DNA from: Bacteroidales bacterium
Lineage (GTDB): Bacteria; Bacteroidota; Bacteroidia; Bacteroidales; VadinHA17
Direction of reading: 5' to 3'
Assembly: GCA_025454775.1 (NCBI GenBank)
Contig: JALONU010000001.1
Coordinates: 1-40,218, forward strand
Length of the DNA stretch: 40,218 nucleotides
Under the pieces are notes generated by a model. It worked only from the letters and a program-made list of their open reading frames with translations. It had not been told where the DNA came from and did no database searches. Made by a program: the position numbers and the translations under genes. The number at the start of each line of letters is the position of its first letter. Positions within the stretch are counted from its first letter, which is position 1. Positions 2,895-23,862 of this stretch are shown here, one piece after another.

Positions 2895-5800
2895 ATGTTA
2901 AAACGAAGTGTACTAATTTTTTTGTTACTACTGGCTAATCTGAGCCTGATAGCCCAGCAGACCATCTCCGGGGTTGTCAGGGATCAGTCGGGGCAACCTA
3001 TGTCGGGAGTGACAGTTGTTGTGCAGGGTACTTCCGTCGGAACCCTGACCGGCGTTGACGGGAGATACTCACTGCAGGCGCCGGCAGGTGCCGCAACCCT
3101 TCAATTCTCATTCATAGGTTATACCACACTGAACGAGCCTATCGGAGGCAGAACAGCCGTTGATGTGGCTCTTAAAGAGATGGTGACCGGGCTGGATGAG
3201 GTTGTGGTGGTTGGTTACGGAACTCTGAGGAAGAAGCTCGTTACCGGTGCCACAGTCCAGGTAAAGGGTGAAGACATCCAGAAGCTGAGCACGGTTTCAC
3301 CGATGACAGCTCTCCAGGGTCAGACACCCGGTCTATCGATTATTAAGAATACAGGGCAGCCCGGCGACGGATTCAAGGTCAACATCCGAGGCATGGGTAC
3401 CATAGGAAACTCACAGCCCCTGTACGTAATCGATGGTGTACCGGGAGGGAACATCGATAATCTTGCTCCTGCCGATATTGAAACCATCGACGTCCTGAAA
3501 GACGCTGCCTCTTCAGCAATTTACGGTTCGCGCGGTGCTAATGGTGTTATCCTGGTTACGACAAAGAAAGGTGTAAAGCCTGCCAGCGGTTACAAGGCAA
3601 ATATCAGTTACGACGGTTCATTCGGCTGGCAGAACCTTTACAAGAAACTCCCGCTGATGAACGGCCTCGAGTATGCTAACATAGTAAATGAAGCCAGGGT
3701 TAACAGCGGCATGCCTCTGTTCACATATTCAGATGTACCGGACTGGGACAGGATAGTGTCCGGCGCATGGGAGGGAACTGACTGGATCGATGAACTTACA
3801 AATGAGAATGCCCCGGTAATGAACAATGCTCTTAACATTACAGGCGGTTCGGAAGCCGGAACATATTCACTGGGACTCTCTCATTCAAAACAGGAAGGTA
3901 TCTTCGGAACCCCGGTTGAATCAGTCTATGAAAGGTTCTCAGTCCGTCTCAATACCGACTTTATACTCCTCAGGGACAAGACAAATACCTTTACAATAAT
4001 AAGGGCAGGAGAAACCTTAAGATATGTGAATTCCAATTCACATGGTGTGGGGACCAGCAACCAGTACTGGAACGACGTATTCAGCTGCATTATTGCAAGC
4101 CCCTTCCTTCCGTTACTTGCTGCCGATGAAACTGACAAGGCATATCCATACCATTATGCAATTCCGTTCAACTCACAGGCATCTAACCCGATTGCCCAAA
4201 TGGTTTATTCAAGAGGCCTCAACAACAGCCAGAACCACAACCTTAACGGAAGCGTCTATATCGAGATCCAGCCGATCAGGAATTTGGTATTCCGCAGTTC
4301 ATTCGGCTACGGAATGTCAGCAGGATCATGGAGAAGCTATACCCCCGTTTATGATCTGAGTTCAACATCTTTCAACGGAGAGGACGATGTGAGCCATTCG
4401 ATGTGGGAAGGCTACAACTGGACCTGGGAAAACACTCTTTCATATAATTTCATGCTCGGAACCGACCACAATTTCACAGCCCTCCTGGGAACATCTGCTG
4501 AAAGATCAGGGCTTGGCGAAAACCTTAGCGGATCAAATTCCAATTCCCTTTTCAGCGATTTTGAGCATGCTTATCTCGACAACACACCGGTGATTGATGT
4601 GAATCTCACAAATATTGGAAGCAGCCCATGGGGAATCGGTGGTATCATATCCTACTTCGGACGTGTTTCCTACAACTTCAGGGAAAAATATATGGCTACG
4701 GCAGTTCTCCGTGCCGATGCATCGTCGAATTTCATGCTCGGCAACAGGTGGGGTTATTTCCCCTCTTTCTCTGCCGGATGGGTGGTTTCAGAGGAAAATT
4801 TCTTCGCCAACGTTAAGGACAAGGTCAACTTCCTGAAAATCCGCGGAGGCTGGGGCCAGAACGGGAACCAGTCCATCCCCAGGTTCCAGTATCTGGCTAC
4901 CATCTCGTTCGCCAATGTCAACTATTTCTTCGGACCAGATAAAGCTGAGGTATCGACCGGAGGTTATCCCAACATCCTTCCAAATCCGGATGTAACATGG
5001 GAAACTTCAGACCAGGTCAATATAGGATTTGATGCACGCTTCCTGAAAAACAAGCTTACCGCAGAGTTTGACTGGTACAGGAGAACAACCTACGACTGGC
5101 TGGTCAATCCCTCGATGCTTGCATCCTATGGAACAAATGCACCTTATATTAATGGCGGCGACGTTCTCAACACAGGTGTCGAGCTTGCCTTAGGGTACAG
5201 CGACAACGCAGGTGATCTGAGGTATACAGTTGGTATAAACGGATCGTATAACAAGAATGAGGTCAAGAGGATTGCCAACAACGAAGGAATATTCCATGGT
5301 CCGGGTAACGTGCTCGGACAGGGAACGGAAGAGCTCTATCGCGCACAGGTAGGTTATCCTATCGGTTATTTCTGGGGCTATAAGACACTCGGGGTATTCC
5401 AGACAGAGACTGAAGTTTCCGAATACCGGAATTCGGAAGGCAAGGTGATCCAGCCGACAGCTGTTGCCGGCGACCTTATCTTCGATGATACCGACGACAA
5501 CGGGGTGATTGATTATAACGACAAGGTCATGATAGGTGATCCCAATCCCGATTTCATCGTTGGGTTCAGCCTGTCGCTGGCTTATAAGGGATTCGACTTC
5601 AGTATGTTGTCGAACGGAGCTTTCGGACAGCAGATAGCACGCAGCTGGCGCCGCTGGGCCGACTCTCCTCTTAACAACTATACTACCGACGTCTTCGACA
5701 GATGGCACGGAGTAGGTTCTTCAGACAAATATCCGAGGCTTACATACGGAGCCCATCCCAACTGGCAATACAACTCCGATATTTTCATCGAAGATGCAGA

Positions 5801-6041
5801 TTATATGAAGATCAGCAACGTGACCCTGGGTTACGATCTGAAGGCTTTACTGAAGACAATTCCTCTTGCTTCTGCCCGGTTCTTCGTGACAGTTCAGAAC
5901 CTGTATACATTCACTGGCTATTCGGGGATGGACCCTGAGATCGGAGCAGGTTCAGGGACCGACAGCTGGGCAAAAGGGATAGATATCGGATTTTATCCTT
6001 CTCCCCGGACAGTTATGCTGGGTGCAAGCTTGAAATTTTAA
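2895..6041 (+). CDS. susC: SusC/RagA-family TonB-dependent outer-membrane transporter
   Basis: 1048 aa. Signal peptide, then a carboxypeptidase-regulatory-like domain (ISGVVRDQSGQPMSGVTVVVQGTSVGTLTGVDGRYSL), a TonB-box-like DEVVVVGYG, a plug (IDVLKDAASSAIYGSRGANGVILVTTKKG) and a C-terminal barrel ending in F. A susD gene follows 3 nt downstream. Confidence 0.95.
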   Translation: MLKRSVLIFLLLLANLSLIAQQTISGVVRDQSGQPMSGVTVVVQGTSVGTLTGVDGRYSLQAPAGAATLQFSFIGYTTLNEPIGGRTAVDVALKEMVTGLDEVVVVGYGTLRKKLVTGATVQVKGEDIQKLSTVSPMTALQGQTPGLSIIKNTGQPGDGFKVNIRGMGTIGNSQPLYVIDGVPGGNIDNLAPADIETIDVLKDAASSAIYGSRGANGVILVTTKKGVKPASGYKANISYDGSFGWQNLYKKLPLMNGLEYANIVNEARVNSGMPLFTYSDVPDWDRIVSGAWEGTDWIDELTNENAPVMNNALNITGGSEAGTYSLGLSHSKQEGIFGTPVESVYERFSVRLNTDFILLRDKTNTFTIIRAGETLRYVNSNSHGVGTSNQYWNDVFSCIIASPFLPLLAADETDKAYPYHYAIPFNSQASNPIAQMVYSRGLNNSQNHNLNGSVYIEIQPIRNLVFRSSFGYGMSAGSWRSYTPVYDLSSTSFNGEDDVSHSMWEGYNWTWENTLSYNFMLGTDHNFTALLGTSAERSGLGENLSGSNSNSLFSDFEHAYLDNTPVIDVNLTNIGSSPWGIGGIISYFGRVSYNFREKYMATAVLRADASSNFMLGNRWGYFPSFSAGWVVSEENFFANVKDKVNFLKIRGGWGQNGNQSIPRFQYLATISFANVNYFFGPDKAEVSTGGYPNILPNPDVTWETSDQVNIGFDARFLKNKLTAEFDWYRRTTYDWLVNPSMLASYGTNAPYINGGDVLNTGVELALGYSDNAGDLRYTVGINGSYNKNEVKRIANNEGIFHGPGNVLGQGTEELYRAQVGYPIGYFWGYKTLGVFQTETEVSEYRNSEGKVIQPTAVAGDLIFDDTDDNGVIDYNDKVMIGDPNPDFIVGFSLSLAYKGFDFSMLSNGAFGQQIARSWRRWADSPLNNYTTDVFDRWHGVGSSDKYPRLTYGAHPNWQYNSDIFIEDADYMKISNVTLGYDLKALLKTIPLASARFFVTVQNLYTFTGYSGMDPEIGAGSGTDSWAKGIDIGFYPSPRTVMLGASLKF

Positions 6042-6044
6042 AAG

Positions 6045-7838
6045 ATGAAGAATATGAAAAAGATATTTCTGTTACTATTTTCAGTTGTAGTGCTGGCGGG
6101 CTGCACCGAGGATTTTCTTGATACTGTTCCGCTGACATCGAAAACGAACAACGACTTTTACCAGACAGTGTCCGATATGGAGCAAGGTCTTACAGCTGCC
6201 TACCAGACACTTGTCGATGTACCGGGCGGAGGCTGGGTTATTGCCTGTTATCCATTCGCTATGTCCGAGATAATGTCGGATGAGCGGTTTGGCGGAGGCG
6301 GAGACAATGACCGCGGGGTAAGGGCGATATGCGACTTCAAGATCGAAGGCTCTGATATGTTTATTTTTCCCTGGAAGAGAGCCTATACCGGGATCTACAG
6401 GTGCAACATGATCCTCGAAAACATCGACAAACCGAAATGGGAGAGTGAGGCACAGAAGGGTAAGGTGGAAGGACAGGCACGTTTCCTGAGGGCAATGATG
6501 TACTTCGATCTATCAAGAATGTTCGGGGAAGTGCCCCTGATTATTGAAACCAAACCTCAGAATCTGCCTAAAGCACCAGCAGCTGATACTTATGCACAGA
6601 TAGCTGCCGACCTGAAAGCTGCCATAGAAGCCTTCCCAAGTGTTCCTTACGGAGTGGCAACCTATTCTGATCTGGGCCGTGCGAACAGGTGGAATGCTGA
6701 AGCCATGATGGCAAGGGTATTCCTGTTCTATACAGGTTATTACGGCGAAGACGCACTTCCTCTTCCCGACGGAGGAACGGTTACAAAAGCAGAAGTCGTT
6801 ACATGGCTCGAGGACTGCATCGACAACAGCGGTTACCAGCTCATGCCCGAATTCAGGAACCTCTGGCCCTATGCCTTGGCTAATGCAACAAATTCGGAAA
6901 AACCCTACAAGTATGCTGTCGACAACAATCTTTCCTGGTACGGGGAAGAAGGTACGAATGCTGAAACGATGTTCGCCCTGAAATTCTCGACATTTGCCGA
7001 CTGGGGTACAAGCATTTATTACAGCAACCAGATGAACCTCTTTTTCGGATGGCGTCAGTATTCATATAAAGGTGCTATGGGAGAAGGCTGGGGAATGGGT
7101 ACTGTAAATAAAAAGCTCTGGGATGCATGGCCTGATGAAGATATGCGCAAGAGAGGGTCCATCTGCAAGGTCGATGATGATGCCGTTGAGGGTATTGATG
7201 CAAGCTACGGTCTTGGCGTTGATACTCACGACAAGCAGATGGATGAAACCGGCTACTGGCAGAAAAAGTACAGGCCGATCAACCTCTACAATGACGGTGA
7301 ATGGCATAATTACAGCGTTGAGTTTTATAATGCTACCAGGAATTTCCAGCTCGATAACATGCAGGATATAGTTCTGATAAGATTTGCAGACGTTCTTCTG
7401 ATGCATTCAGAACTTACCGAGACAGTTGACGGCATAAATCAGGTGAGGGCACGGTCGAGTGTTCCTATTGCTGACCCTCCCCCTGCAACTACAACTCACC
7501 CTTCGTTACCTCCGCTTGCTACTTATACGCTGGAAGCACTTAAGAATGAACGCCGGTTTGAACTTGCATTCGAAGGCGTCCGTTACTATGACCTTATGCG
7601 CTGGTATGGCAAGAATAACCTCACCGGCCTGGAGCAGCACCTTGAATCGGCACAGAACGGAGTACCCACTTTCAACAATGGTGTATGGGGTGTAAAGAAA
7701 GGAGTTGACTTCAGACCGATCACAGGAGGGTTTATCCAGATACCCAACCAGGAGGTTCAGCTTTCGGAAGGAGTGCTGATCCAAAATCCGGGATGGGAAC
7801 CGGGCGTTGCCCCTGTTTACTCATTCAGTGCACGTTAG
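6045..7838 (+). CDS. susD: SusD/RagB-family glycan-binding outer-membrane lipoprotein
   Basis: 597 aa. Lipoprotein signal (VVLAGC), TPR-like helical core, and typical SusD motifs (RAYTGIYRCN, GQARFLRAMMYFDLSRMFG, ERRFELAFEGVRYYDLMRW). Sits immediately after susC. Confidence 0.95.
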   Translation: MKNMKKIFLLLFSVVVLAGCTEDFLDTVPLTSKTNNDFYQTVSDMEQGLTAAYQTLVDVPGGGWVIACYPFAMSEIMSDERFGGGGDNDRGVRAICDFKIEGSDMFIFPWKRAYTGIYRCNMILENIDKPKWESEAQKGKVEGQARFLRAMMYFDLSRMFGEVPLIIETKPQNLPKAPAADTYAQIAADLKAAIEAFPSVPYGVATYSDLGRANRWNAEAMMARVFLFYTGYYGEDALPLPDGGTVTKAEVVTWLEDCIDNSGYQLMPEFRNLWPYALANATNSEKPYKYAVDNNLSWYGEEGTNAETMFALKFSTFADWGTSIYYSNQMNLFFGWRQYSYKGAMGEGWGMGTVNKKLWDAWPDEDMRKRGSICKVDDDAVEGIDASYGLGVDTHDKQMDETGYWQKKYRPINLYNDGEWHNYSVEFYNATRNFQLDNMQDIVLIRFADVLLMHSELTETVDGINQVRARSSVPIADPPPATTTHPSLPPLATYTLEALKNERRFELAFEGVRYYDLMRWYGKNNLTGLEQHLESAQNGVPTFNNGVWGVKKGVDFRPITGGFIQIPNQEVQLSEGVLIQNPGWEPGVAPVYSFSAR

Positions 7839-8798: not shown

Positions 8799-8813
8799 AT
8801 CAAATTTATATGT

Positions 8814-9491
8814 ATGAAGGTTATACCTGTCGTATGTCTGTCATTTCTTGCTGTCTCATGCATCAGTAAAGACACCCTGACAGTTAATGGAACTGTTGAT
8901 GATCCTGCCCTGAATAATACAAAAGTATATTTTGTCGCGTCCGACGGACCAGTCACCCATGATGTGGATTCAGCTATAATAATTGACGGAAGATTCAGGT
9001 TTGTTAAAAAAGCTGATTCCATGCGTGTGAGGATCGTAAGGGTCCCGGTCAGATTCCCGGGAGCATTGGAGGATCTTGTTACAGTCCTTGAGAAGGGAAC
9101 TATTGATGTTGACCTGTCAGCAAACAGCAGGGGGGGTGGAACAAGACTTAATAACAGGCTTCAGGAATGGAAGGATTATAAACATTCACATGACTCTCTT
9201 CAGTCGGATCTTTACGCATTAAAAAGACAGGAAGGTACAACAAAAGAATATACCGACAGCCTGTTGATGAAGTCAGCCCTCTTAAACCAGGAATACAGAA
9301 GCTACGTTTTTAACCTGATGAATGAAAACCTTCATAATGGCATCGGCCTGCTTCTTTTCAAGGTGTATTACCATGAGATTGCGGTTGAGGAAAAGAAGAG
9401 GATTCTGGACCTTACAGGGAATATTTATCTTGAAAAAGACGCACAGCTCAGGAACATGGTAATGAACGACAAATCCCTTAACCCGGAATGA
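8814..9491 (+). CDS. Small lipoprotein with a DUF4369-like N-terminal beta domain and a helical C-terminal half (function unknown)
   Basis: I prefer the start at 8814 (MKVIPVVCLSFLAVSC lipobox) over the ORF-track start at 8769. The N-terminus (LTVNGTVDDPALNNTKVYFVASDG...IIDGRFRF) resembles the DUF4369 domain usually fused to TlpA-like thioredoxins in Bacteroidota, but no CxxC or thioredoxin domain is present here. The stop overlaps the next ATG (ATGA at 9488..9491). Confidence 0.55.
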   Translation: MKVIPVVCLSFLAVSCISKDTLTVNGTVDDPALNNTKVYFVASDGPVTHDVDSAIIIDGRFRFVKKADSMRVRIVRVPVRFPGALEDLVTVLEKGTIDVDLSANSRGGGTRLNNRLQEWKDYKHSHDSLQSDLYALKRQEGTTKEYTDSLLMKSALLNQEYRSYVFNLMNENLHNGIGLLLFKVYYHEIAVEEKKRILDLTGNIYLEKDAQLRNMVMNDKSLNPE

Positions 9492-11275
9492 GATCAATTG
9501 CTGTATCCGGTGGCTGGAAGATCTTTTATGCTGCTTTCTCTGCAGCAACTTTTATTTTCTTCGGGGTCTCCTATGAAAACCACCTGATTCGGATGGAACA
9601 GCTCCAGTTGTTCCAGACAACGGCAATTTATTTGGCAGACAAACTGTCTGTTCAGGGTGGATTTGCAGACTATACAGGTGAATTTTTAGTGCAGTTCTTT
9701 GGTCTGCCCTTTGCGGGAGCAGTAGTTACCGGCATCATGCTCAGCCTCGTAATAATTCTGACAGGGCAGATAATAAGACTGGTAACAGCCAGGGAACCTT
9801 TAATGTTGTTTTCTTTTCTCCCCGCCGCAGGCTGGTTCTTGCTGCTGCAAAACGAATTTTATTCATTTTCGGGTGTGCCGGGTTTTCTCATTTCCCTGTT
9901 CGCTTCACGGTTCTACCTGACCCTGAAGCAACCATCAAAAAGAATTTTCGCAGGGATCTTGCTGATACCTATTGTGTACTGGCTCACAGGAGCTGCATAC
10001 ATGACATTTGTACTTGTTATTGTAATTTCAGAAATCATTTTCAGGACAAAGGCAAGAGAACTTAAACCGGTTCCCCTGGCTGTGCTTCCCGCGTACCTTG
10101 TAATCGGGATCATGGTGCCCCTTGCTGCCAGGTTCCTGATAATTGAGGACACCCTTCTGCAGGCATACATTTCAGGATCATACTTCAGGCTAAGCATTTT
10201 CTTCCCGTTTCCACTGGTGTTGATAGTGATCTCAGTTCCTTGTTTTATTCTTTTACAGGAATTTCTGCCCTTTGCACCCTTTGCGCAATCGTCTTTGCGT
10301 CCTTTGCGGTTAAATATCATATCATCCTGTGCCATAATGCTCTTTCTGATCGTCGGTATTTTGGCCTGGGGCGATTTCAGGGCTGAAGATCAGATGGAAT
10401 ACGACAACCTCGTGTACAGGGAGAAATGGAACAGGATCATTGAGAAGGCTGAGAGGGAACAACCAACTGACCGTTTGTCGATGGTCGCGGTGAACCTCGC
10501 GCTTGCAAAAACAGGGCAGCTTTCTGCCAGGATGTTCAGCCTCGGGCAGTCAGAAGACTTCCTGTTTTCTGAATATGAGCGAAGGGGGATGACTCCTTTC
10601 CTGGCAGGAGAACCTTTCTATCACCTTGGATTCATAAATTTCGCACAGATGGTTGCCTTTGAGACACTCGAGTCAACACCCGATGCGAAATTTCCTTCAC
10701 GGTCACTGATAAGGATCGCTTCAACTTACCTTATCAACGGGCAATATGATATTGCAAGGAAATACCTGGAACCTCTGAGCCATACGGTTTTCTACAGGAA
10801 ATGGGCCAGGGAATGCATCAGACTTTCATACAGGGAGGATGAAATCAGAACCCATCCTGTCTGGGCCTATATGAGAAGCCTCAGTGCTAAACATGATTTC
10901 TTTTATAATGCAGGGCAGATGGATGTGGCGCTCAGGTATTTGCTTCTTTCCAATCCGCGCAATAAAATGGCCTATGAATACCTCATGGCTTTTTACCTGC
11001 TCGACAGGGATCTGGACAGCTTCCTGAAGTACCTCCCGCTTACCAGGCAGCTGAATTATGACGGAATGCCAAAATCGTGGCAGGAGGCGGCTGCGTATAT
11101 AGCGACACGTCTGCCTGATGATCTGCCCCAGCTAGAGGGATTCAGACCAGACCAGGAAACAATAAACAGGATCAAAGCTTATGCTGATCTGTTTTCCGGG
11201 GAACCCAGGGATACTACAAGAATAAGACAGGAATACGGAGATACATACTGGTATTATCTTCATTTTGTGAAATGA
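9488..11275 (+). CDS. Module 1 membrane protein (MP1): about 9 TM helices plus a C-terminal helical-repeat (TPR-like) domain of about 290 aa; uncharacterised family
   Basis: 595 aa. Hydrophobic segments run through about residue 300, then a soluble region (NLALAKTGQL, LINGQYDIARKYLEPLSHTVFYRKWA, AYEYLMAFYLLDRDL, C-terminal TYWYYLHF). Clear paralogue of 12747..14552 and 16258..18123. From memory this resembles Bacteroidota proteins labelled DUF6057; I have not verified that. Confidence 0.8.
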   Translation: MRSIAVSGGWKIFYAAFSAATFIFFGVSYENHLIRMEQLQLFQTTAIYLADKLSVQGGFADYTGEFLVQFFGLPFAGAVVTGIMLSLVIILTGQIIRLVTAREPLMLFSFLPAAGWFLLLQNEFYSFSGVPGFLISLFASRFYLTLKQPSKRIFAGILLIPIVYWLTGAAYMTFVLVIVISEIIFRTKARELKPVPLAVLPAYLVIGIMVPLAARFLIIEDTLLQAYISGSYFRLSIFFPFPLVLIVISVPCFILLQEFLPFAPFAQSSLRPLRLNIISSCAIMLFLIVGILAWGDFRAEDQMEYDNLVYREKWNRIIEKAEREQPTDRLSMVAVNLALAKTGQLSARMFSLGQSEDFLFSEYERRGMTPFLAGEPFYHLGFINFAQMVAFETLESTPDAKFPSRSLIRIASTYLINGQYDIARKYLEPLSHTVFYRKWARECIRLSYREDEIRTHPVWAYMRSLSAKHDFFYNAGQMDVALRYLLLSNPRNKMAYEYLMAFYLLDRDLDSFLKYLPLTRQLNYDGMPKSWQEAAAYIATRLPDDLPQLEGFRPDQETINRIKAYADLFSGEPRDTTRIRQEYGDTYWYYLHFVK

Positions 11276-12744
11276 AAACTTTTAACCGCTGTTTGTTTTT
11301 TTTCTTTCTGCTTCCTTTTTCGGCTTGTAATGAGGAATACCGGTCAGTAATCACAATTAACAATTATCCTTCTATATTCCCCGATTATAAAGAGGTAACA
11401 ATACCTTATAATATAGCGCCGCTCAACTTCAGGGTTAAGGAGGAAGCAGAAAGGCTGATCGTTAAAATAAAAGGTAAAGGCCCGGAGCACGAATTCCGCT
11501 TCAGGGGGAACAAAGCCAGGTTCCATCAAAAGGATTGGGAAGGGATAATGAAAACTTCCGCAGGCAATGATCTTGAAATAACTGTAAGTGTTGGTCACCA
11601 AGATTCCCTCAAAGTCTATAAGTCATTTACAATTCATGTATCAGAGGACAAGATCGATGATTACATGGTCTACAGGCTGATTATGCCCGGATTCCAGAAC
11701 TGGAACCAGATGGGCATTTACCTGCGTGAACTGTCATCATTCAGTGAAGAGACGGTAATAAACAGCCGTCTTCTTCCGGGAACCTGCATGAACTGCCATA
11801 CCTTCCTGCATAATGATCCGCAAAATATGGTTCTTCACCTCCGGGAATCTTACGGGGGTACGATCCTGTATCACAATAATGTCCTTGAGAAGCTTAATAC
11901 AAAAGCCGGAAAGATGTTTGCAAACGCAGCATTTCCTGCATGGCATCCTTCGGCAAAGTACATAGCCTTTTCCGTGAACAGGGTCAACCAGGTATTTCAT
12001 GCCAGCGGCTCTTTCAGGGCTGCGGCCATAGACATGAAATCTGATATTTTCATATATGATATTGAAAGGAATGAGATGCTGACTTCCCCTGCGCTTTCGG
12101 CCGGAGATAACTTCGAAACATTCCCCTGCTTCTCTGCCGATGGCACGAAGTTGTTTTATTGCAGCGCCGATTCCGTTCAGATGCCACAGAAATTCCAGCA
12201 GGCAAGGTACAGCCTGTGTTCGGTATCATTTGATCCGGAAACTGGAACCATTGGAAGCAGCCCGGATACAGTGCTATCTGCGGCAGTTACCGGCAAAAGT
12301 ATGTCACTGCCGCGGGTCTCACCCAACGGCAGGTTCCTGATGTTCGTCATGGCTGACCACGGCTGCTTCCCGAGCTATAATCCTGAAGCTGATCTGTGGA
12401 TGCTCGACCTTGAGAACGGTAATTATGAGCCGTTGACCATACTGAACAGCGATAATGTGGAAAGCTGGCATTCATGGTCTTCAGACGGCCATTGGGTGGT
12501 TTTCAGCAGCCGCAGGGAAAACGGCCTTCATTCAAATCCATTCATCGCTTATATTGACAGTAATGGAAAACCTCACAAGCCATTCCTGCTCCCCCAGGAA
12601 GATCCCTCATTCTACGACAGCTTTTTGTTCTCATATAATATCCCTGAGCTGATCAAAGCTCCGGTGAAGGTCCGGCCTTACACTATCGTAAAGACTGCAA
12701 GATCGTCGCCAGCTGTACAGGTCAGCTCAGGGTCAGGACACTGA
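11272..12744 (+). CDS. Module 1 lipoprotein (LP1): N-terminal beta domain, CxxCH motif, TolB/PD40-like beta-propeller
   Basis: 490 aa. Lipobox LLPFSAC; YPSIFPDYKEVTIPYNIAPLNFR; CMNCH at 11785..11799; PD40-like blades (WHPSAKYIAFS, FSADGTKLFYCSA, VSPNGRFLMF, WSSDGHWVVFSSRR). The start overlaps the MP1 stop (ATGA). Confidence 0.8.
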   Translation: MKTFNRCLFFFFLLPFSACNEEYRSVITINNYPSIFPDYKEVTIPYNIAPLNFRVKEEAERLIVKIKGKGPEHEFRFRGNKARFHQKDWEGIMKTSAGNDLEITVSVGHQDSLKVYKSFTIHVSEDKIDDYMVYRLIMPGFQNWNQMGIYLRELSSFSEETVINSRLLPGTCMNCHTFLHNDPQNMVLHLRESYGGTILYHNNVLEKLNTKAGKMFANAAFPAWHPSAKYIAFSVNRVNQVFHASGSFRAAAIDMKSDIFIYDIERNEMLTSPALSAGDNFETFPCFSADGTKLFYCSADSVQMPQKFQQARYSLCSVSFDPETGTIGSSPDTVLSAAVTGKSMSLPRVSPNGRFLMFVMADHGCFPSYNPEADLWMLDLENGNYEPLTILNSDNVESWHSWSSDGHWVVFSSRRENGLHSNPFIAYIDSNGKPHKPFLLPQEDPSFYDSFLFSYNIPELIKAPVKVRPYTIVKTARSSPAVQVSSGSGH

Positions 12745-12746
12745 TA

Positions 12747-14552
12747 ATGAAAGAAAGGAACATGCCGGGGAAAGGAAAATATCTGACTCATAAATACATC
12801 ATTCCTGTAATATTTGTTGCAGGTTCTTTCCTCTGTTTCGGGCTGTTCCTTAGATATAATCTGTGGTTCCGGGAGCAGCTGCAGGTCTTTCTGCTAACCT
12901 TTGATCACCTGCAGGGGTACTTTACCAAACCAGCTTTCCTGGCTTCATGGATCGGGGATTTCCTGACTCAGTTCTTTCATCCCTCGTGGGGAGCTGCCAC
13001 TGTTATTTCTATAACACTGCTGATCCTCTGGCTGCTCCTTCATGTTCTTGTCAAGAAAACCGGGGGCACAAAAGTGCCATTCCTGGTCCCGCTTCTTCCG
13101 GTGATTCTCTGCTGGGCAGCCCTCACCAGTCTTGAATACCCGGTGTCAAATGTTATATCACTCTGCATAGCAATATCTTTCGTGCTTGTATATGTTTCGA
13201 TCAGGCCTGCAACCGGAAGACAGTTATTTGGCATTGTTTCCATTCCGCATGTCTACCTGACAGCCGGCAGCAGTATGTGGATATTTGCAGCGGCATTTCT
13301 TATATATGAACTCAGAGAGAAAAGGATCAAGGGATTCAAATCGCTGTTGCTGCCCCTGGTAATAGTTGCTATTGCGGTCGGTATTCCTTTGATACTCAGG
13401 TTAAAATACTTGCTTACCCCATTTCAGGCTCTGACCTGGCTTTCGGAAATGAAGAGAAACCCGGGAATCTGGGATTTCCTTCCACTTGCCGGGGTCATTA
13501 TCTCTGCATCGGTATCGATGATGGTTATATGGGATAAGGTCGCTTTTAAAAGCAATTCTCTTGTTTCGGGCTTCCTCCAGGCCCTGGTGATCGGGGCTGT
13601 TCTGGCAGGAGGGATCCTGAAAGTCTATGACAGGGATCTGGAAAAGATTCTCAGGCTCGATCGCGAAGCGGCAAACGGGAACTGGAAGAAAGTATATGAG
13701 CTCTCGGAGGAATATGAACTCCGCAATAACATCGCATCATATTTCACAAACATGGCGATGGCAAAGCTCGGCATAATGCCAGACAGTCTTATGATGCACT
13801 ACCAGCCTGCAGCCACCGGCCTTTTCATACCCGTAAATGCCAATGAGAATTATCTGACGATCACATTGAGCAACGAAGTATACTGGCATCTCGGCGATGT
13901 GAATGCCGCCCAGCATTCAGCGTACCTGGGTACAATCTTTTCTCCCAGGGCAGAGAACAGCAGGCTAATGAAAAGGCTTATTGAAATAAACATAGTTAAC
14001 GGCCAGTATGCAGTCGCGGAGAAGTATGTAAGGATACTGGAGAAGACCATGTTCCACGGGAACTGGGCTGAGGATATGCGGAAATATCTTTACAATGAGG
14101 AAGAGTGTGGCAGGTCGGAGTGGATCAGGGCAAAGAGAGCTGTCATTCCTTCCACAGACCTCCTGAAATCCGGGAATGAATATGTAAAAACACTGCGGAT
14201 GCTCGTTCAGAACAATCCGGCTAACAGGATGGCGCTTGATTACCTTCTTTGCTTTCATCTCCTCAGCAGGGATATCCCATCCTTTGAATCAGACTTTGAG
14301 AAATATTATCTTCCAGGCATGGATGCGGTTCTCCCGCGGGTATACCAGGAAGGTCTCCTTATAAACATCGCTTCCAGAAGGAAGACGCCGGCAGATTATT
14401 CCCGGTTCAGCTTCTCGCCGGAAACCGTAAGGCAGATGGCTGAATACACAAGGTTATTTGAAGAAAGCAACGGGAAAGGTTCTGTGTTAATTGAAAAGTT
14501 TGGTAAAACTTACTGGTTCTATTATCATTTTGCAAGGATGAAAGATGAATAA
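12747..14552 (+). CDS. Module 2 membrane protein (MP2), paralogue of MP1 and MP3
   Basis: 601 aa with the same architecture: GDFLTQFF near the N-terminus, IVNGQYAVAEKYVRILEKTMFHGNWA, ALDYLLCFHLLSRDI, C-terminal TYWFYYHF. Starts 2 nt after the LP1 stop. An alternative start is the MPGKGKY ATG at 12762 (compare MP3, MPGKNVK). Confidence 0.8.
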   Translation: MKERNMPGKGKYLTHKYIIPVIFVAGSFLCFGLFLRYNLWFREQLQVFLLTFDHLQGYFTKPAFLASWIGDFLTQFFHPSWGAATVISITLLILWLLLHVLVKKTGGTKVPFLVPLLPVILCWAALTSLEYPVSNVISLCIAISFVLVYVSIRPATGRQLFGIVSIPHVYLTAGSSMWIFAAAFLIYELREKRIKGFKSLLLPLVIVAIAVGIPLILRLKYLLTPFQALTWLSEMKRNPGIWDFLPLAGVIISASVSMMVIWDKVAFKSNSLVSGFLQALVIGAVLAGGILKVYDRDLEKILRLDREAANGNWKKVYELSEEYELRNNIASYFTNMAMAKLGIMPDSLMMHYQPAATGLFIPVNANENYLTITLSNEVYWHLGDVNAAQHSAYLGTIFSPRAENSRLMKRLIEINIVNGQYAVAEKYVRILEKTMFHGNWAEDMRKYLYNEEECGRSEWIRAKRAVIPSTDLLKSGNEYVKTLRMLVQNNPANRMALDYLLCFHLLSRDIPSFESDFEKYYLPGMDAVLPRVYQEGLLINIASRRKTPADYSRFSFSPETVRQMAEYTRLFEESNGKGSVLIEKFGKTYWFYYHFARMKDE

Positions 14553-14576
14553 GATTTTTAGATTGAAGTTAATCAG

Positions 14577-14732
14577 GGTGATCCTTCGCTTCGCTCAGGA
14601 TGACAATTTCTTTGTCCGGATATGGGGAGCAGGGATGCGCAAAGCTCCCAGCTTTGCGCATCCCTGCTCCCCCGTGTGTCTCCCTGGACATTCTGTCATT
14701 TCGAATGGAGCGAAGCGAAATGAGAAATCTCC
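14577..14732. repeat. Nested palindromic intergenic element A (MITE/REP-like)
   Basis: Imperfect outer inverted repeat: GGTGATCCTTCGCTTCGCTCAGGATGACA (14577..14605) versus TGTCATTTCGAATGGAGCGAAGCGAAATGAGAAATCTCC (14694..14732). It encloses a perfect 23-bp hairpin, GGGGAGCAGGGATGCGCAAAGCT (14624..14646) / AGCTTTGCGCATCCCTGCTCCCC (14650..14672), with a 3-nt loop. Same architecture as the element at 23669..23827. Confidence 0.8.
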
Positions 14733-14751
14733 TTGCTCTATTCCCAATTTC

Positions 14752-16248
14752 ATGTTAAAACGCTTTTACGCTCTTTGCGGATTTTTCTTATTCATGGGAT
14801 CTTTGATCCTGTTTTTTTCCTGCAACGGGGATCACCAGCAAATTATCCGGAATGACATTTACCCGTCTATATATCCTGATTACGCTAATGTGACAATACC
14901 TTATAATATAGCTCCGCTGAATTTTAGGCTTGAGGCTGATTGTCAGAAGGTTGAGGCTGTTTTTTCGGGCAGGAAAAGCTCCTTCACCGTCAGCGGAAAA
15001 AGAAAAATCATTATTCCCGTAACGAAATGGAAGAAAATGCTGGAGGAACACGAGGACGATTCCCTCTTAGTTTCAGTTTCTGTGTTGAATGACGGCAAAT
15101 GGAACAGGTACAGGCCATTCTGCCTGTATGTCTCTGCAGACAGGATTGATCCTTTTCTTTCGTACCGTCTTATAGAACCGGGCTATGAAGTTTATTACAA
15201 GCTGCAGATATGCCAGAGAAACCTTGAGAACTTCGACGAGAAGGTGCTCGCTGACAATAACCTGCTCGACATAGGATGCATCAACTGCCATACATATTCG
15301 TTCGCTGATCCTGAAAGATCCTTTTTCCACCTTCGGCATAAGAAGGGTGGAACAATGGTGCAGGTGAATGGAAAATTCAGGAAGATCAATACTGCTACCG
15401 ACAGCACCATTTCATCCGGAGTTTATGGCAACTGGCATCCGGGAGGAAGATATATTGCATTCTCGACCAATGTGATAATCCCGGAGTTCCATTCAATAAA
15501 CAACCTGCGCCTTGAAGTCTACGACACAGTTTCGGACGTGGTTGCCCTCGACCTCGAAAATAATGAGATCATCAGGAGCAGGCTGCTTGACGATCCTCTG
15601 AGGTTTGAGACTTTTCCGGCCTTTTCAGCTGACGGGAAGAGACTTTTCTTCTGTTCTGCCGAAGCTGTAAGCATGCCTGGGAACTACAGGCAGGCAAAAT
15701 ACAGCCTCTGCGCAATAGATTTCGATCCTTCGGCAGGAGCCTTTGGAATAAGGATAGATACTCTGGTCTCAGCGAGAGCAACGGGAAAGACGATCAGCGA
15801 ACCCAAACCTTCTCCTGACGGGAAATACATTCTCTACACATCTTTCGGTTATGGGAATTTCCCTGTCTGGCATAAAGAGGCAAACCTGCATCTACTGAGG
15901 CTTTCTGACCTGAGAGTGGATACATTGCCCCTGGTGAATTCCGATAATGCCGATTCCTATCACAGCTGGTCGTCGGACAGCCGGTGGTTCGTTTTTGCCA
16001 GCAAGCGGGGCGACGGGGTATATGGGAAACCATGGTTTTCCCATATTGACGCGAACGGCAGAACAACAAAGCCTTTCCTAATGCCCCAGAGAGATCCGGA
16101 GTTCTATGATTTCTTCATGAAATCATATAATATCCCGGAATTATCTTCCGGTCCGGCTCCGTTCACTCCGGAAGATGTCCGCAGGGCTTTTATCCAACTT
16201 GAGGCAGAACCTGTTGATGTCAATGATTATAAGACGGAAAAACCGTAG
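14752..16248 (+). CDS. Module 2 lipoprotein (LP2): CxxCH plus TolB/PD40-like propeller
   Basis: I prefer the start at 14752 (MLKRFYALCGFFLFMGSLILFFSC lipobox). The 14545 start would translate the repeat element (ILRFAQDDN...). Motifs: IYPSIYPDYANVTIPYNIAPLNFR; CINCH at 15277..15291; WHPGGRYIAFS; FSADGKRLFFCSA; PSPDGKYILY; WSSDSRWFVFASKR. Confidence 0.8.
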   Translation: MLKRFYALCGFFLFMGSLILFFSCNGDHQQIIRNDIYPSIYPDYANVTIPYNIAPLNFRLEADCQKVEAVFSGRKSSFTVSGKRKIIIPVTKWKKMLEEHEDDSLLVSVSVLNDGKWNRYRPFCLYVSADRIDPFLSYRLIEPGYEVYYKLQICQRNLENFDEKVLADNNLLDIGCINCHTYSFADPERSFFHLRHKKGGTMVQVNGKFRKINTATDSTISSGVYGNWHPGGRYIAFSTNVIIPEFHSINNLRLEVYDTVSDVVALDLENNEIIRSRLLDDPLRFETFPAFSADGKRLFFCSAEAVSMPGNYRQAKYSLCAIDFDPSAGAFGIRIDTLVSARATGKTISEPKPSPDGKYILYTSFGYGNFPVWHKEANLHLLRLSDLRVDTLPLVNSDNADSYHSWSSDSRWFVFASKRGDGVYGKPWFSHIDANGRTTKPFLMPQRDPEFYDFFMKSYNIPELSSGPAPFTPEDVRRAFIQLEAEPVDVNDYKTEKP

Positions 16249-16257
16249 ATTTGTAAT

Positions 16258-18123
16258 ATGCCCGGCAAAAATGTGAAAACGGTTGATGGCAGGCTGGCAA
16301 GAAATTCTGCTTTACTATCTGCCCTGATCTTCTTTGCAGCTGTTTTCAGCTTCTTTGCTTTTTTTTACAACAAGCACCTGCATTTCGAGGAGGAGACGCA
16401 GCTTTTCCTTACGACAGGGGATTTTTTTACGGCAAAAATGAAGCTTCCGGGGGGATTGTCGGGATACCTTGGAGGATTCCTTACCCAGTTCTATCACCTT
16501 GACCTTGCCGGCCCTTTTATTATAGCGGTACTTCTGCTCGGCATACAACAGCTTACATTGAGAATTCTGAACAGGGTGAATGTGAATCCTGCCTGGTTCC
16601 TTCTGAGCTTTCTGCCAGCTGTGAACGGGATGCTGATCCTCTGCGATGAGTTCTATCCCCTTTCCGGCATTGTCGGGATACTGGCAGCCCTTTTTGCCGG
16701 GTGGATCTACACCGGCACAGACAACCGGACAAAAAGATTTATTTCCGGTCTGCTTCTGATAGCTGTGACATATTGGATAGCAGGCGGATCCTTCCTTATG
16801 CTCGTGGGAATAATACTGGCCTGCGAGGCACTAATATTTTTTAAGGCACGAAGAAGGCTTAAGACCCGGAAAGATAATCAATCCAGCACTCTGAAGGGCT
16901 GGCAGCTCACAGTCCTTGTTGTGGTTGCGGCTGCAATACCCCTGCTGGTCAGGCAGTTCCTTGTTCTTCAGCCGCTGGGGCTGGCTTACATAACCGAATT
17001 CTACTATGATATGCGGACGGTGATCCCGACCGCCATCCCCGTGATACTTGCACTACCCGCCATCCTGATGGCACTGGTATATTTTCTTCCTGAAAATAAA
17101 GTAATGCATGGTTCGGTCATTTTTGCACAGGCAGGCATCCTGGTAATCCTATGGTATTTCGGGTTGAAGCTATGGGCGAATTTCAGCGCCGAGCAGATCA
17201 TGACTTACGATCAACTCGTCAGGAACGAGAAATGGAAAGAGGTCCTGGATTATGCAGAGAAGGAGCCTCCGAGAAATAACCTTTCACTGGCGATGCTTAA
17301 CCTTGCCCTGGCAAAGACTAACAGGATGGGAGACCAGCTTTTCAGATACGAGCAGAACGGGTTCAACGGTCTTTTCCTGCCTTTCGCAAAGGAATATGTA
17401 GCCCCGATGATGGGCAGTGAGATATTGTTCCAGCTTGGACTCATCAATGCTTCGCAGGAATACTCTTTCGAAAGCACGGAAACCACACCCAACCTCGACA
17501 AGTCGGTGAGAGCCATAAAGCGACTCGCGGAGACAAACCTCATAAACGGTCAGTACGAAGTTGCCGGAAAGTACCTGAAGATCCTGCAGAAAACGGTTTT
17601 CTACCGTAAGTGGGCAGGGGAGACGATGAAACTCCTGTATAATGAGGATCTCATAAACAGCCATCCGGTCTATGGTGCGAAAAGAAAGCTTGCCCCGAAA
17701 CGGGATTTCTTCTTCAAGATACAGAACATGGAGGAGATACTGAAACTGATGATCCGTGAGAATCCTTCCAATAACATGGCTTTCCAGTACCTGATGTCAT
17801 TCTACCTGCTGAACAAGGATCTCAGGAACTTCATGAACAGTCTCCCCATGATGAACACAATGAAATATATCAGGATACCGGTGGCATACGAAGAAGCTAT
17901 CATGTATGTAATAGGGCTCGCGACTACAAACCCGATGGCAAACACTGATTTCAGGATCAGTAATGAGACCAAGGCAAGGATGCAGGCTTATGCAGATATT
18001 TACACCACCCGAAGAGATGCGCAACAGATACTCGGTACAAGATTCGGGAATACTTTCTGGTATTACCTTCATTACAAGCAGATTGAAATAACCCCCGCCG
18101 AGGTGCAAAGAGAATACCATTGA
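16258..18123 (+). CDS. Module 3 membrane protein (MP3), paralogue of MP1 and MP2
   Basis: 621 aa. Positively charged N-terminus, about 9 TM helices, then NLALAKTNRM, LINGQYEVAGKYLKILQKTVFYRKWA, AFQYLMSFYLLNKDL and a C-terminal TFWYYLHY. Starts 9 nt after the LP2 stop. Confidence 0.8.
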   Translation: MPGKNVKTVDGRLARNSALLSALIFFAAVFSFFAFFYNKHLHFEEETQLFLTTGDFFTAKMKLPGGLSGYLGGFLTQFYHLDLAGPFIIAVLLLGIQQLTLRILNRVNVNPAWFLLSFLPAVNGMLILCDEFYPLSGIVGILAALFAGWIYTGTDNRTKRFISGLLLIAVTYWIAGGSFLMLVGIILACEALIFFKARRRLKTRKDNQSSTLKGWQLTVLVVVAAAIPLLVRQFLVLQPLGLAYITEFYYDMRTVIPTAIPVILALPAILMALVYFLPENKVMHGSVIFAQAGILVILWYFGLKLWANFSAEQIMTYDQLVRNEKWKEVLDYAEKEPPRNNLSLAMLNLALAKTNRMGDQLFRYEQNGFNGLFLPFAKEYVAPMMGSEILFQLGLINASQEYSFESTETTPNLDKSVRAIKRLAETNLINGQYEVAGKYLKILQKTVFYRKWAGETMKLLYNEDLINSHPVYGAKRKLAPKRDFFFKIQNMEEILKLMIRENPSNNMAFQYLMSFYLLNKDLRNFMNSLPMMNTMKYIRIPVAYEEAIMYVIGLATTNPMANTDFRISNETKARMQAYADIYTTRRDAQQILGTRFGNTFWYYLHYKQIEITPAEVQREYH

Positions 18124-18128
18124 CAGGA

Positions 18129-19595
18129 ATGAAAATCAATTTAGCAATACTATCAGCAGCGTTGCTGCTTCTCATAGCTTCCTGTTCGGGAATTCCCGGT
18201 AATCCGGAAGAAGGAAATTCACTGCCAGTGCTTTACCCTGATATCACGGAGGTGACCACTCCTGTCAACATCGCCCCGATGAATTTCAGGATAGAGGCAC
18301 AATCTGAAAAGCTGGTAGTGAGGTTTGAAGGCGGTTCCGTGGGATTTGTGCTGAAGGGAAAGGACAGGATAACGATCCCGTCGGGGAAGTGGCACAGGCT
18401 TCTCAGGGAATCGGCAGGAAGTTCCGTGAATGTAAGCATCTGGTCGAAGGAGCAAGGTTCATGGATAAAGTATTCTCCCTTCAGGATTTATGTCAGGAAG
18501 GAACCCATAGACCAGTACCTGGCTTACCGGCGTATAGCCCCCGGCTATGAGTCATGGAGCAGCATGGGGCTTTACCAGAGGGACCTTACATCGTTCAGGG
18601 AATCTGTGATTATTGATAACCGGCTCCTGCCGGGAAACTGCATGAACTGCCACTCCTTCAACAGGAACGATCCGGGGCAGATGTTGTTCCATCTGCGGGG
18701 GAACATAGGTGCAACGATGTTGGTTCAGGGGGAAGATGTGACCAAGCTGAATACGCGCACGAAAGAAACCGGGCTGAACTGCGTTTACCCGAACTGGCAT
18801 CCTTCCGGATCATATATTGCTTTCTCAGTCAATAAGATAGCCCAGGTGTTCCATACTGTGAGGGATAAGAGGATAGAAGTTTTTGACACAAAATCCGACC
18901 TGGTTGTGCTGGATACACGGAACCGCCGGCTGATCACTTCCCCGCTGGTCTATACAACCGGGAGCTATGAGACCTTCCCGGTATTTTCAGCTGACGGGGG
19001 AATCCTGTATTTCTGCTCAGCCGATACGGCAAGGATGCCCGACGAGTATGACAGGGTTAAATACAGCCTTTGCAGCATTACCTTCGATGCAGCCTCAGGA
19101 ACTTTCGGGAACAGGGTCGACACTGTTATAAGCCGGACACAGACCGGAAAGAGTATCTCTTTCCCACGAACCTCTCCTGACGGTAAATTCCTGATGTTCA
19201 CGCTGTCCGATTACGGGAATTTCAGCCTTTGGCACAGGGAAGCGGACCTCTGGCTTCTGAACCTGGCTGACAAATCTGTAAAACCGATAAACCAGGTGAA
19301 TTCAGGTGAAGCTGACAGCTTTCATTCATGGTCATCAGGCTCCCGGTGGTTTGTTTTTGCCAGCAGGCGTACAGATGGTCTTTACACCCGTCCTTATTTT
19401 GCCTGGCTTGATGAAAACGGGGAAGCTACAAAGCCTTTTATACTTCCACAGAAGAACCCCGACTTCTACGATTATTGCCTGAATTCTTTCAATGTGCCTG
19501 AACTGGTGGCCGGAAAGATAAGGACCGACGGCAGGAAAATGCTGAAGACAATCGGCTCGGAGGCAAAAAGTGTTACTTTTGAGATAAAAGAATAA
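18129..19595 (+). CDS. Module 3 lipoprotein (LP3): CxxCH plus TolB/PD40-like propeller
   Basis: I prefer the ATG at 18129 (MKINLAILSAALLLLIASC lipobox). The ORF-track TTG at 18120 overlaps the MP3 stop. Motifs: LYPDITEVTTPVNIAPMNFR; CMNCH at 18639..18653; WHPSGSYIAFS; FSADGGILYFCSA; TSPDGKFLMF; WSSGSRWFVFASRR. Confidence 0.8.
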   Translation: MKINLAILSAALLLLIASCSGIPGNPEEGNSLPVLYPDITEVTTPVNIAPMNFRIEAQSEKLVVRFEGGSVGFVLKGKDRITIPSGKWHRLLRESAGSSVNVSIWSKEQGSWIKYSPFRIYVRKEPIDQYLAYRRIAPGYESWSSMGLYQRDLTSFRESVIIDNRLLPGNCMNCHSFNRNDPGQMLFHLRGNIGATMLVQGEDVTKLNTRTKETGLNCVYPNWHPSGSYIAFSVNKIAQVFHTVRDKRIEVFDTKSDLVVLDTRNRRLITSPLVYTTGSYETFPVFSADGGILYFCSADTARMPDEYDRVKYSLCSITFDAASGTFGNRVDTVISRTQTGKSISFPRTSPDGKFLMFTLSDYGNFSLWHREADLWLLNLADKSVKPINQVNSGEADSFHSWSSGSRWFVFASRRTDGLYTRPYFAWLDENGEATKPFILPQKNPDFYDYCLNSFNVPELVAGKIRTDGRKMLKTIGSEAKSVTFEIKE

Positions 19596-19601
19596 TTCTT
19601 T

Positions 19602-20756
19602 ATGCCAAAGGCCTATTTTACTTATCTTCCGGAGGTTGCGGGGACTGTTGCGGAAGAAATCGAACAGTGTGTCGGGAAGATCGGGGGGATTATTTCAGAT
19701 GGCTATCTGCCTGTTAAGCTTAACTTCTTTGCCGGCTCTGCTGATCTGTCAGCCTTTCTTAAAACAAGGGAGTATATCCGGAATCGTCTTATGGAAGCTT
19801 TCAGGGACAGTTGTCCGGCGTTCTGTGTTACGGCACAAGCTCCTGAAAAACCGGCAGTCCTGGCCATGGAAGTAACATGTGTGACGAAAAACAATAATGT
19901 TGGTTACAGGAAACATCTTGATATCCCGTATACGGTCGTTAATTCGGACGAGGGGACTGAGCTCTGGGCTGCAGGAGTAAGCAGCTATCAATATCACGAC
20001 GACACCCGTAATGCCGCAACGCAGGCCTTCGAACAGGTAAATAGTATTCTGGCCGCTGAAAGTATGTCGATGAATAACATTGTCAGGCAGTGGAATTATA
20101 TAGGCAATATATTGAAGATCAGTGAGGGGCGGCAGAATTACCAGGTGTTCAACGAAGTCCGGAATGAATATTACACAAGATACCGCTCCGTAAAGGGCTA
20201 TCCGGCTGCAACGGGTGTGGGAATGATGCACGGTGGTGTCATCCTTGATTTCTGCGCCCTCAGGCCCTCTGATGAAACCACGATATTCCCGGTTGAGAAT
20301 CCGCATCAGCTAAATGCATATAACTATGGCCAGCAGGTGCTGAAAGGCGCATCACCGGATGGCCAAATACTCAGGCATCCACCGCAGTTCGAACGGGCCC
20401 TTCTGATTTCAAACCGTTCGGAGGCCATACTCCATATTTCGGGTACTGCATCGATCATAGGGCAGGAGACGGTTGGAACGGGCGATATAGAAAAGCAGTC
20501 GCTGGTCACAATCGGGAACATGAACCTTTTGTCCGATGCTGAAAGGCTGCAAAAGCTTAATGCAAGGATTCATCCTGCTGAAAGCCGGTATTCACTGATA
20601 AGGGTTTATATAAGGAACAGGGAAGATTTTAATATAGTCCGGCTTATATGCGATGAACGCTTTCCGGGTGTTCCTGCCCTTTTTGTGAATGCCGATATCT
20701 GCCGCGATGATCTGCTGATGGAAGTCGAGGCTGAGGCGGATGTCAGTATAATTTGA
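19602..20756 (+). CDS. Chorismatase-like protein (FkbO/Hyg5/XanB2-type, RidA/YjgF fold); tentative
   Basis: 384 aa, no signal peptide. The C-terminal segment HISGTASIIGQETVGTGDIEKQSLVTIGNMNLL matches my recollection of the conserved ISGTASI.G.E(T/S)...GD...Q motif of chorismate-transforming FkbO/Hyg5 enzymes. Starts 6 nt after the LP3 stop. Confidence 0.45.
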   Translation: MPKAYFTYLPEVAGTVAEEIEQCVGKIGGIISDGYLPVKLNFFAGSADLSAFLKTREYIRNRLMEAFRDSCPAFCVTAQAPEKPAVLAMEVTCVTKNNNVGYRKHLDIPYTVVNSDEGTELWAAGVSSYQYHDDTRNAATQAFEQVNSILAAESMSMNNIVRQWNYIGNILKISEGRQNYQVFNEVRNEYYTRYRSVKGYPAATGVGMMHGGVILDFCALRPSDETTIFPVENPHQLNAYNYGQQVLKGASPDGQILRHPPQFERALLISNRSEAILHISGTASIIGQETVGTGDIEKQSLVTIGNMNLLSDAERLQKLNARIHPAESRYSLIRVYIRNREDFNIVRLICDERFPGVPALFVNADICRDDLLMEVEAEADVSII

Positions 20757-23827: not shown

Positions 23828-23862
23828 TTAAGCAGACTGTAACTATCATAATCATTTTGCAC

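Follow-up and report, generated by a model that had tools for sequence, protein, structure and literature searches.

The window analysed here is a 40,218-nucleotide (nt) stretch from a Bacteroidales bacterium (GenBank assembly GCA_025454775.1, contig JALONU010000001.1, positions 1 to 40,218 of the forward strand). It encodes three paralogous β-propeller lipoproteins, which we call PROP1, PROP2 and PROP3 and which are pairwise 39-41% identical. Each contains one CxxCH motif and each is the partner of a DUF6057 membrane protein. The best reading of the PROP site, judging from the sequence data, is that it carries a covalently attached haem c with two His ligands, and we put the chances of this being correct at about even. 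The propeller genes, their motifs and the His-Leu-Arg triplets that vary together with the motifs are as follows.

11272..12744, plus strand: PROP1, lipoprotein of 490 amino acids (aa) with an N-terminal β-sandwich and a predicted, roughly six-bladed PD40 propeller (open reading frame (ORF), Pfam, AlphaFold2 model, lipobox FSAC-N)
14752..16248, plus strand: PROP2, 498 aa from the ATG at 14752 (ORF, Pfam, alignment, lipobox FFSC-N)
18129..19595, plus strand: PROP3, 488 aa from the ATG at 18129, in an ORF that opens at TTG 18120 (ORF, Pfam, lipobox IASC-S)
11785..11799, plus strand: CMNCH of PROP1, comprising C172, N174, C175 and H176 (translation, alignment)
15277..15291, plus strand: CINCH of PROP2 (translation, alignment)
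18639..18653, plus strand: CMNCH of PROP3 (translation, alignment)
11836..11844, plus strand: H189-L-R191 of PROP1, in which the His may be the distal haem ligand and the Arg may bind a propionate (both absent from relatives that lack the motif)
15328..15336, plus strand: H-L-R of PROP2 (sequence)
18690..18698, plus strand: H-L-R of PROP3 (sequence)

A preliminary description of this DNA had noticed the three pentapeptides and placed them at about residues 171-176 of each protein. The translations confirm this. The motif starts at residue 172 in PROP1, 176 in PROP2 and 171 in PROP3, and all three fall in a single alignment column. The flanking context is conserved as described, but its downstream part is (F/L)HLR and not FHLR throughout, PROP1 having VLHLR. 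The window encodes 24 proteins with 12,727 aa in total, among which there is no other CxxC or CxxCH; from composition, 0.0006 CxxCH motifs would be expected per 490-aa protein. A search for close homologues in 5.8 billion proteins gave 4,721 relatives, the best 120 of which were scored for CxxCH; exactly one was found in 118, and the other two were C-terminal fragments. A profile was searched exhaustively against 1.84 billion cluster representatives and gave 726 clusters (50% identity) at E<1e-30, and 146 of the 150 best representatives had exactly one CxxCH. The motif was also present in 103/103 family ORFs that cover the region, from 82 loci in genomes and assemblies, the window included. 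The consensus is C-[MVIL]-N-C-H, with the Asn conserved at 99%. That the motif is functional and not a chance occurrence, as had been proposed, is well borne out by a frequency far above the composition expectation and by very high conservation in relatives. Frequent absence of CxxCH from homologues would have spoken against the proposal, and it was seen in none of the three sets.

Three full-length relatives lack the motif and have SMGCY (P0142), KLDYL (P0199) or FIDSY (P0208) in its place. These were compared with the family at about 70 positions with at least 85% conservation. C172, N174, H176, H189, R191 and V252 were changed in all three relatives and C175 in two of them, the third having kept it. 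Most other conserved residues were retained, including H225, H400, W402 and R415. Among motif-bearing representatives, H176 and R191 are 100% conserved. The two Cys and two His, with the Arg and the Asn, thus behave as one evolutionary unit, as expected of a cofactor pocket, and their joint loss while nearly all other conserved residues are kept points to one cofactor site. The loss pattern is that expected for a cofactor site with two axial His residues and a propionate-binding Arg, which are the roles that these residues would take with haem c.

We modelled PROP1 with AlphaFold2 from 72 sequences (predicted local distance difference test score (pLDDT) 91.7, predicted template-modelling score (pTM) 0.90). 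PD40 (PF07676) matches PROP1-3 with 46-60 bits against a cut-off of 20.9 (E=2.4e-12 for PROP1). From DSSP assignments and the PD40 signatures, the protein is predicted to open with a β-sandwich at about residues 25-124, followed by six blades of four strands each. PD40 signatures are found at the D-to-A junctions of blades 2-5 (WHPS..YIAF, FSADG..LFY, VSPNG..LMF and WSSDG..VVF). Between blades 1 and 2 this signature, which is P-x-W-S-P-D-G elsewhere, seems to be replaced by TCMNCHTF-LHNDPQN-MVLHLR. The preliminary description had located the motif between the N-terminal domain and the first blade, and had envisaged a haem c protein fused to a propeller. Neither part of this picture survived. 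According to the model, the motif is not a linker between domains but belongs to the last strand of blade 1. Neither a cytochrome family nor a cytochrome fold was detected, and the motif forms part of the propeller itself, where blades 1 and 2 meet.

The N-terminal β domain (window 11272-11650) has the near-invariant sequence PDY..VTIP.NIAPLNF, and it weakly matched the Pfam N-terminal barrel of TssR in 20/72 members (best E=3.7e-5). TssR is a membrane-complex lipoprotein of the type VI secretion system subtype iii (T6SS-iii) and not a propeller protein (PMC10781749). Kinship of PROP with TssR was rejected, since only the N-terminal barrel matches, weakly, and TssR is without a propeller.

Several results weigh against haem c at this site. 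The first comes from the PROP1 model, in which DSSP assigns residues 171-178, the pentapeptide included, to an eight-residue β-strand (local pLDDT about 91). In known haem c sites CXXCH is held in a helical turn, and the predicted placement is real evidence against a canonical haem site. H189, the candidate distal ligand, is His in 91% of motif-bearing representatives and Gln, Tyr, Gly or Ser in the others. When 72 family members were scanned against Pfam and NCBIfam, no cytochrome c match was obtained even at E<=5. Foldseek of the PROP model against the PDB returned generic propellers only (S9 peptidases, cd1 nitrite reductase and WD40 proteins) at template-modelling scores (TM) of 0.2-0.4, the best propeller matches reaching E 1e-8. 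Because the cd1 nitrite reductase matches have a TM of only about 0.33, they were not treated as evidence for haem. A profile of the motif region matched cytochromes in the PDB only at non-significant, CxxCH-driven E values of 0.4-6, and the family profile gave only weak TolB or propeller matches to PDB sequences. A scan of +/-10 kb in 92 loci brought up no multi-haem gene and, apart from one ambiguous tryptophan-rich-motif hit, no ccsA-like gene. The transmembrane part of DUF6057 is without conserved pairs of His or Cys through which electrons could be relayed, and PROPs that lack the motif keep their DUF6057 partner in SusC/SusD or carbohydrate-active enzyme (CAZyme)-type loci.

The main rival explanation is a non-haem site where blades 1 and 2 meet. 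It could be a metal centre containing Zn, Fe or Cu, or a redox or catalytic thiol-imidazole, and would serve ligand binding, sensing or catalysis. In the β-strand model C172, N174 and H176 would lie on one face and H189 and R191 on one face of the next strand, and these residues match the set lost together in motif-less relatives. The failure to detect a cytochrome domain, fold or family, the lack of identified maturation or redox-partner genes nearby, and the retention of C175 in one motif-less variant are all compatible with such a site. The strand model does not favour every version of it. Residues i and i+3 face opposite sides of a strand, so that the model equally disfavours a CxxC disulfide and a single-ion metal site; neither C172 and H176 (i, i+4) nor C172 and C175 (opposite faces) can share one ion in an extended strand. 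Moreover, a 100% conserved His right after the second Cys is a hallmark of haem c and unusual as a co-ligand of the same ion, and an invariant Arg and Asn coupled to the site are atypical of Cys2His2 sites. That Gly, Gln and Tyr are tolerated at H189 would be easier to understand for a variable distal ligand of haem than for a ligand of a structural metal, and an exported CxxCH would be a CcsBA substrate (PMC13645880). On balance we regard a non-haem site as possible but rather improbable.

It could also be argued that the cysteines are purely structural, in a disulfide or in core packing, and that the His is incidental. CxxC pairs often form disulfides, and C175 and the hydrophobic x1 residue would face the blade core in the model. 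This seems to us very improbable: loss of the cysteines goes along with loss of His176, His189, Arg191 and Asn174, a disulfide is impossible for an i, i+3 pair in an extended strand, and PROP has several other conserved cysteines that are unpaired. To our knowledge, many anaerobic Bacteroidales are without a DsbA/DsbB oxidative folding pathway, which also counts against structural cysteines.

In favour of haem c, the exact CxxCH occurs once per protein with an invariant His and together with a Sec/signal peptidase II (SPII) export signal, and a second His and an Arg are lost along with it in motif-less relatives. Judged from sequence only, PROP1-3 all have a lipoprotein signal peptide with a lipobox Cys, and the lipobox C19 is kept in 88% of cluster representatives. 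These signals imply export in unfolded form via Sec, which is the route needed for cytochrome c maturation. Bacteroides thetaiotaomicron has a functional fused System II CcsBA that matures "its six c-type cytochromes", and haem lyases have been described as attaching haem at every CxxCH of an exported chain (PMC13645880). Pentahaem NrfA is commonly encoded in Bacteroidales (PMC12998184). A 42-aa segment of the B. thetaiotaomicron CcsBA (PDB entry 25vk) was used as a query to trace CcsBA in PROP-bearing contigs and returned only 13 short fragments.

If haem c is bound, System II (CcsBA) would attach one haem to C172 and C175, the iron would be bound by His176 (proximal) and His189 (distal), and Arg191 and Asn174 would hold the haem propionates. 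PROP would then represent a type of mono-haem cytochrome c not known before, whose haem lies within the propeller and not in a cytochrome domain.

The partners of the three propeller proteins are the following.

9488..11275, plus strand: DUF6057-1, polytopic membrane protein with a predicted periplasmic tetratricopeptide repeat (TPR)-like domain, partner of PROP1 (PF19529 E=4e-141, pair orthology)
12747..14552, plus strand: DUF6057-2, partner of PROP2 (Pfam E=1.5e-151, pair orthology)
16258..18123, plus strand: DUF6057-3, partner of PROP3 (Pfam E=4e-165, AlphaFold2 model, topology)

PF19529 matches all three over their full length (E from 1e-141 to 1e-165). The pairing holds in nearly all of the 90 loci examined, and where upstream DNA was present DUF6057 almost always precedes PROP. 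Two of the three pairs in the window have a stop codon that overlaps the next start codon, DUF6057-1 and PROP1 sharing a 4-nt ATGA overlap. For both proteins, pairs 1, 2 and 3 of the window are each closest to pairs 1, 2 and 3 of other loci. In L003, where the gene order is rotated, the DUF6057 and PROP of each pair rotate together. The three paralogous pairs are ancient. Genomic evidence thus establishes each PROP as the 1:1 partner of its own DUF6057 protein and the pair as an autonomous cassette. Natural DUF6057-PROP fusions were found three times (P0125, P0144 and P0200); they are mutually divergent (33-55% identical). In the fusions DUF6057 is cut within its helical domain and joined to a PROP that has no signal peptide and retains the motif.

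The AlphaFold2 model of DUF6057-3 (pLDDT 85.9) has eight or nine transmembrane helices and a C-terminal, all-helical, TPR-like domain. The charges of the loops fit the positive-inside rule for an N-in, C-out topology, which would place the TPR-like domain in the periplasm and is consistent with the fusions. Since PROP is fused to an inner-membrane protein, it should be periplasmic and not surface-exposed. An invariant W-x-Y-x-H (TYWYYLHF) is found near the C-terminus of DUF6057, at residues 601-605 of DUF6057-3 and at the same position in the other two proteins. This part is missing from the fusions, where the propeller takes its place, and it may therefore be a docking element for PROP. DUF6057 had no sequence match in the PDB, no other Pfam family was related to it, and Foldseek gave nothing better than E=0.12, with TPR proteins only. 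Three candidate identities, a GT-C glycosyltransferase, a Wzy/O-antigen ligase and a CcsA/CcmF-like haem lyase, were rejected because none had PDB, Foldseek or consistent weak Pfam support among 51 members. No mention of DUF6057 was found in the literature searched, and the search gave nothing relevant on CxxCH propellers in polysaccharide utilisation loci (PULs) or on this propeller family. In databases, members of the PROP family are named "hypothetical protein", "TolB family protein" or, automatically, "cytochrome C biosynthesis protein".

The pairing raises the question whether DUF6057 is a dedicated maturation factor of its cognate PROP and not a working partner, delivering haem or acting as an apocytochrome chaperone as NrfEFG or the TPR-bearing CcmI do. 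The strict 1:1 pairing with paralogue-specific co-evolution, the periplasmic TPR-like domain and the invariant W-x-Y-x-H would suit such a role, and a CxxCH in so unusual a context might need a lyase of its own. Yet DUF6057 is without the WWD haem-handling motif, without conserved His pairs and without similarity to CcsA or CcmF in Pfam or Foldseek; it is also paired with motif-less PROPs, and the stable fusions point to a permanent complex and not to an enzyme with its substrate. We therefore consider a maturation factor unlikely. The continued pairing of motif-less PROPs also shows that the cofactor site is not required for pairing.

The three pairs lie in a larger locus, whose other members around them are listed here.

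2895-6041, plus strand: SusC-like TonB-dependent transporter, with SusD at the head of the conserved module (2895..7838)
6045-7838, plus strand: SusD-like lipoprotein, with SusC at the head of the conserved module
7860-8690, plus strand: 276-aa lipoprotein without a Pfam match, conserved member of the three-pair module
8769-9491, plus strand: DUF4369 protein, conserved member of the three-pair module
19602..20756, plus strand: FkbO/Hyg5-like protein, chorismatase/RidA fold, cytoplasmic, often directly 3' of the propeller gene

The locus also encodes a hybrid two-component system (HTCS) regulator, and downstream of the block follow genes for a glycoside hydrolase of family 31 (GH31), a SASA esterase, an aldose epimerase, an ankyrin protein, an alginate-lyase-family protein, BNR_4, GH67, a major facilitator superfamily (MFS) transporter, GH3 and AXE1. 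The window thus has an adjoining SusC/SusD pair with a regulator and CAZymes and is a PUL, as the preliminary description had assumed in speaking of a glycan utilisation locus. The unit, on the other hand, is the DUF6057-PROP pair, which is not PUL-specific and also occurs outside PULs. The same run of genes, SusC to FkbO-like, is found again in L083/L084 with another regulator, an extracytoplasmic function (ECF) sigma factor with FecR, and in L003, where no glycoside hydrolases lie downstream of it. A minimal form in L087 consists of sigma factor, FecR, SusC, SusD, DUF6057 and PROP. The SusC/SusD-headed module is common to L001, L003, L083, L084 and L087. In Parabacteroides distasonis and other genomes a single pair stands among housekeeping genes (PFK, IspH, Cmk). 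The genomic evidence shows that the cassette has been repeatedly recruited beside SusC/SusD importers.

The family occurs in Bacteroidales and Marinilabiliales, in Parabacteroides, Odoribacter, Phocaeicola, Bacteroides, Alistipes, Tannerella, Dysgonomonas, Draconibacterium, Marinilabilia and Anaerophaga, and PROP is present in hundreds of reference genomes, that of P. distasonis included. Most two- and three-pair loci have the 276-aa lipoprotein and then the DUF4369-only protein, which has no thioredoxin domain, between SusD and the first DUF6057; the minimal single-pair loci have neither. The FkbO/Hyg5-like protein scores 148 bits against a TIGR04444 cut-off of 325. Its gene directly follows the last PROP in the window and in L001, L006, L008-L011, L017, L022, L038, L047, L079, L083 and L085. 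As single-pair loci are among those in which it does so, a functional link between the three genes is suggested. In L085/L086 a GH9 gene is inserted between DUF6057 and its PROP, and genes for a HicA toxin and for integrases or transposases flank the module, which shows that the cassette is being rearranged by mobile elements.

Two gene models in the window deserve comment. The mechanically called ORF of PROP2 begins at 14545 and is a spurious extension, its first 69 codons running through an intergenic element of nested palindromes. This element is present in two copies (window 14575-14735 and about 23669-23830), and the first, which lies between DUF6057-2 and PROP2, is the source of the false N-terminus. 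The copies have their ends in common, GGAGATTCTTCGCTTCGCT..AGAATGACA and TGTCATTC..GCGAAATGAGGAATCTCC, and variable GC-rich hairpins in the centre. Their RNA folds at -88 and -99 kcal/mol (z-scores -10.4 and -8.5), and they look like a miniature inverted-repeat transposable element (MITE) or a repetitive extragenic palindromic (REP) sequence. GH3 is split over two adjoining ORFs, 36256-37095 (N-terminal domain) and 37111-38535 (C-terminal and Fn3-like domains), which could reflect a frameshift, a pseudogene or a sequencing error.

As a working model we infer a periplasmic or inner-membrane module downstream of SusCD, in which haem would be a redox or sensing cofactor. The DUF6057-PROP complex would act in the periplasm or at the inner membrane on SusCD-imported material, or in response to it. 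Haem would serve for redox or ligand sensing and not as a scaffold, because rare paralogues have lost the site and stay paired with DUF6057. A bolder proposal, which we consider doubtful, is that PROP founded a structurally new class of c-type cytochromes with a single haem c in a PD40 blade junction, in obligate complex with DUF6057 of novel fold. In haem-auxotrophic gut Bacteroidales such a machine of the periplasm and inner membrane would be coupled to SusCD import, for instance by gating or processing the incoming substrates in a redox- or haem-dependent manner.

The general view is that c-type cytochromes are very few in gut Bacteroidales, six by one count in B. thetaiotaomicron (PMC13645880), and these bacteria depend on scavenged haem. 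A haem-type site in PROP would mean that the envelope of dominant gut bacteria has a haem or redox component that was not expected. With haem in a propeller blade, the structural repertoire of cytochromes c would also be wider, and there would be a first clue to the function of the orphan membrane protein family DUF6057. If haem is not bound, a conserved and unexplained cofactor site would still be left. DUF6057 and PROP form a widespread two-gene system of Bacteroidales, often wired to SusCD importers, that has so far not been studied in the literature searched.

Like CcmI/CycH, NrfEFG and the CcsA isoenzymes, DUF6057 is a membrane protein with a periplasmic TPR-like domain whose gene stands beside that of a CxxCH protein. 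It differs from them in having no WWD motif, conserved His ligands or detectable homology, and in its pairing with motif-less PROPs as well. Pairs of PSCyt/DUF1549/DUF1553 and DUF1501 proteins, in Planctomycetes and marine Bacteroidetes, are likewise uncharacterised two-gene cassettes with an exported CxxCH protein that recur in polysaccharide-degradation loci. Their domains are unrelated, and the PROP family has no PSCyt Pfam match.

Among propellers, PROP resembles the six-bladed TolB/PD40 proteins (PF07676) in being periplasmic, in having PD40 repeats above threshold and in the P-x-W-S-P-D-G signature of blades 2-5. It is not TolB: PROP1-3 score 35, 16 and 22 bits against an equivalog cut-off of 343 (TIGR02800 / NF002183), and their neighbours are DUF6057 and SusC/SusD and not tolQRA-pal. 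PROP also has a different N-terminal β-sandwich, a lipid anchor, CxNCH...H.R at one blade junction and the DUF6057 partner. BtuG (B12) and XusB (enterobactin) are lipoprotein β-propellers of Bacteroidetes that bind a cofactor-like ligand and, like PROP, are encoded beside TonB-dependent or SusC-type transporters. Unlike PROP, they are surface-exposed and have neither CxxCH nor a DUF6057 partner. Cytochrome cd1 nitrite reductase and the quinohaemoprotein alcohol dehydrogenases share with PROP the combination of a periplasmic β-propeller and CxxCH. The cd1 reductases were among the top Foldseek matches of PROP, at a TM of 0.32-0.34 that amounts to generic propeller similarity. No d1 haem or pyrroloquinoline quinone (PQQ) signatures were seen in PROP, and the haem c of those enzymes is carried by a distinct class-I cytochrome domain, whereas the PROP motif lies inside the propeller itself.

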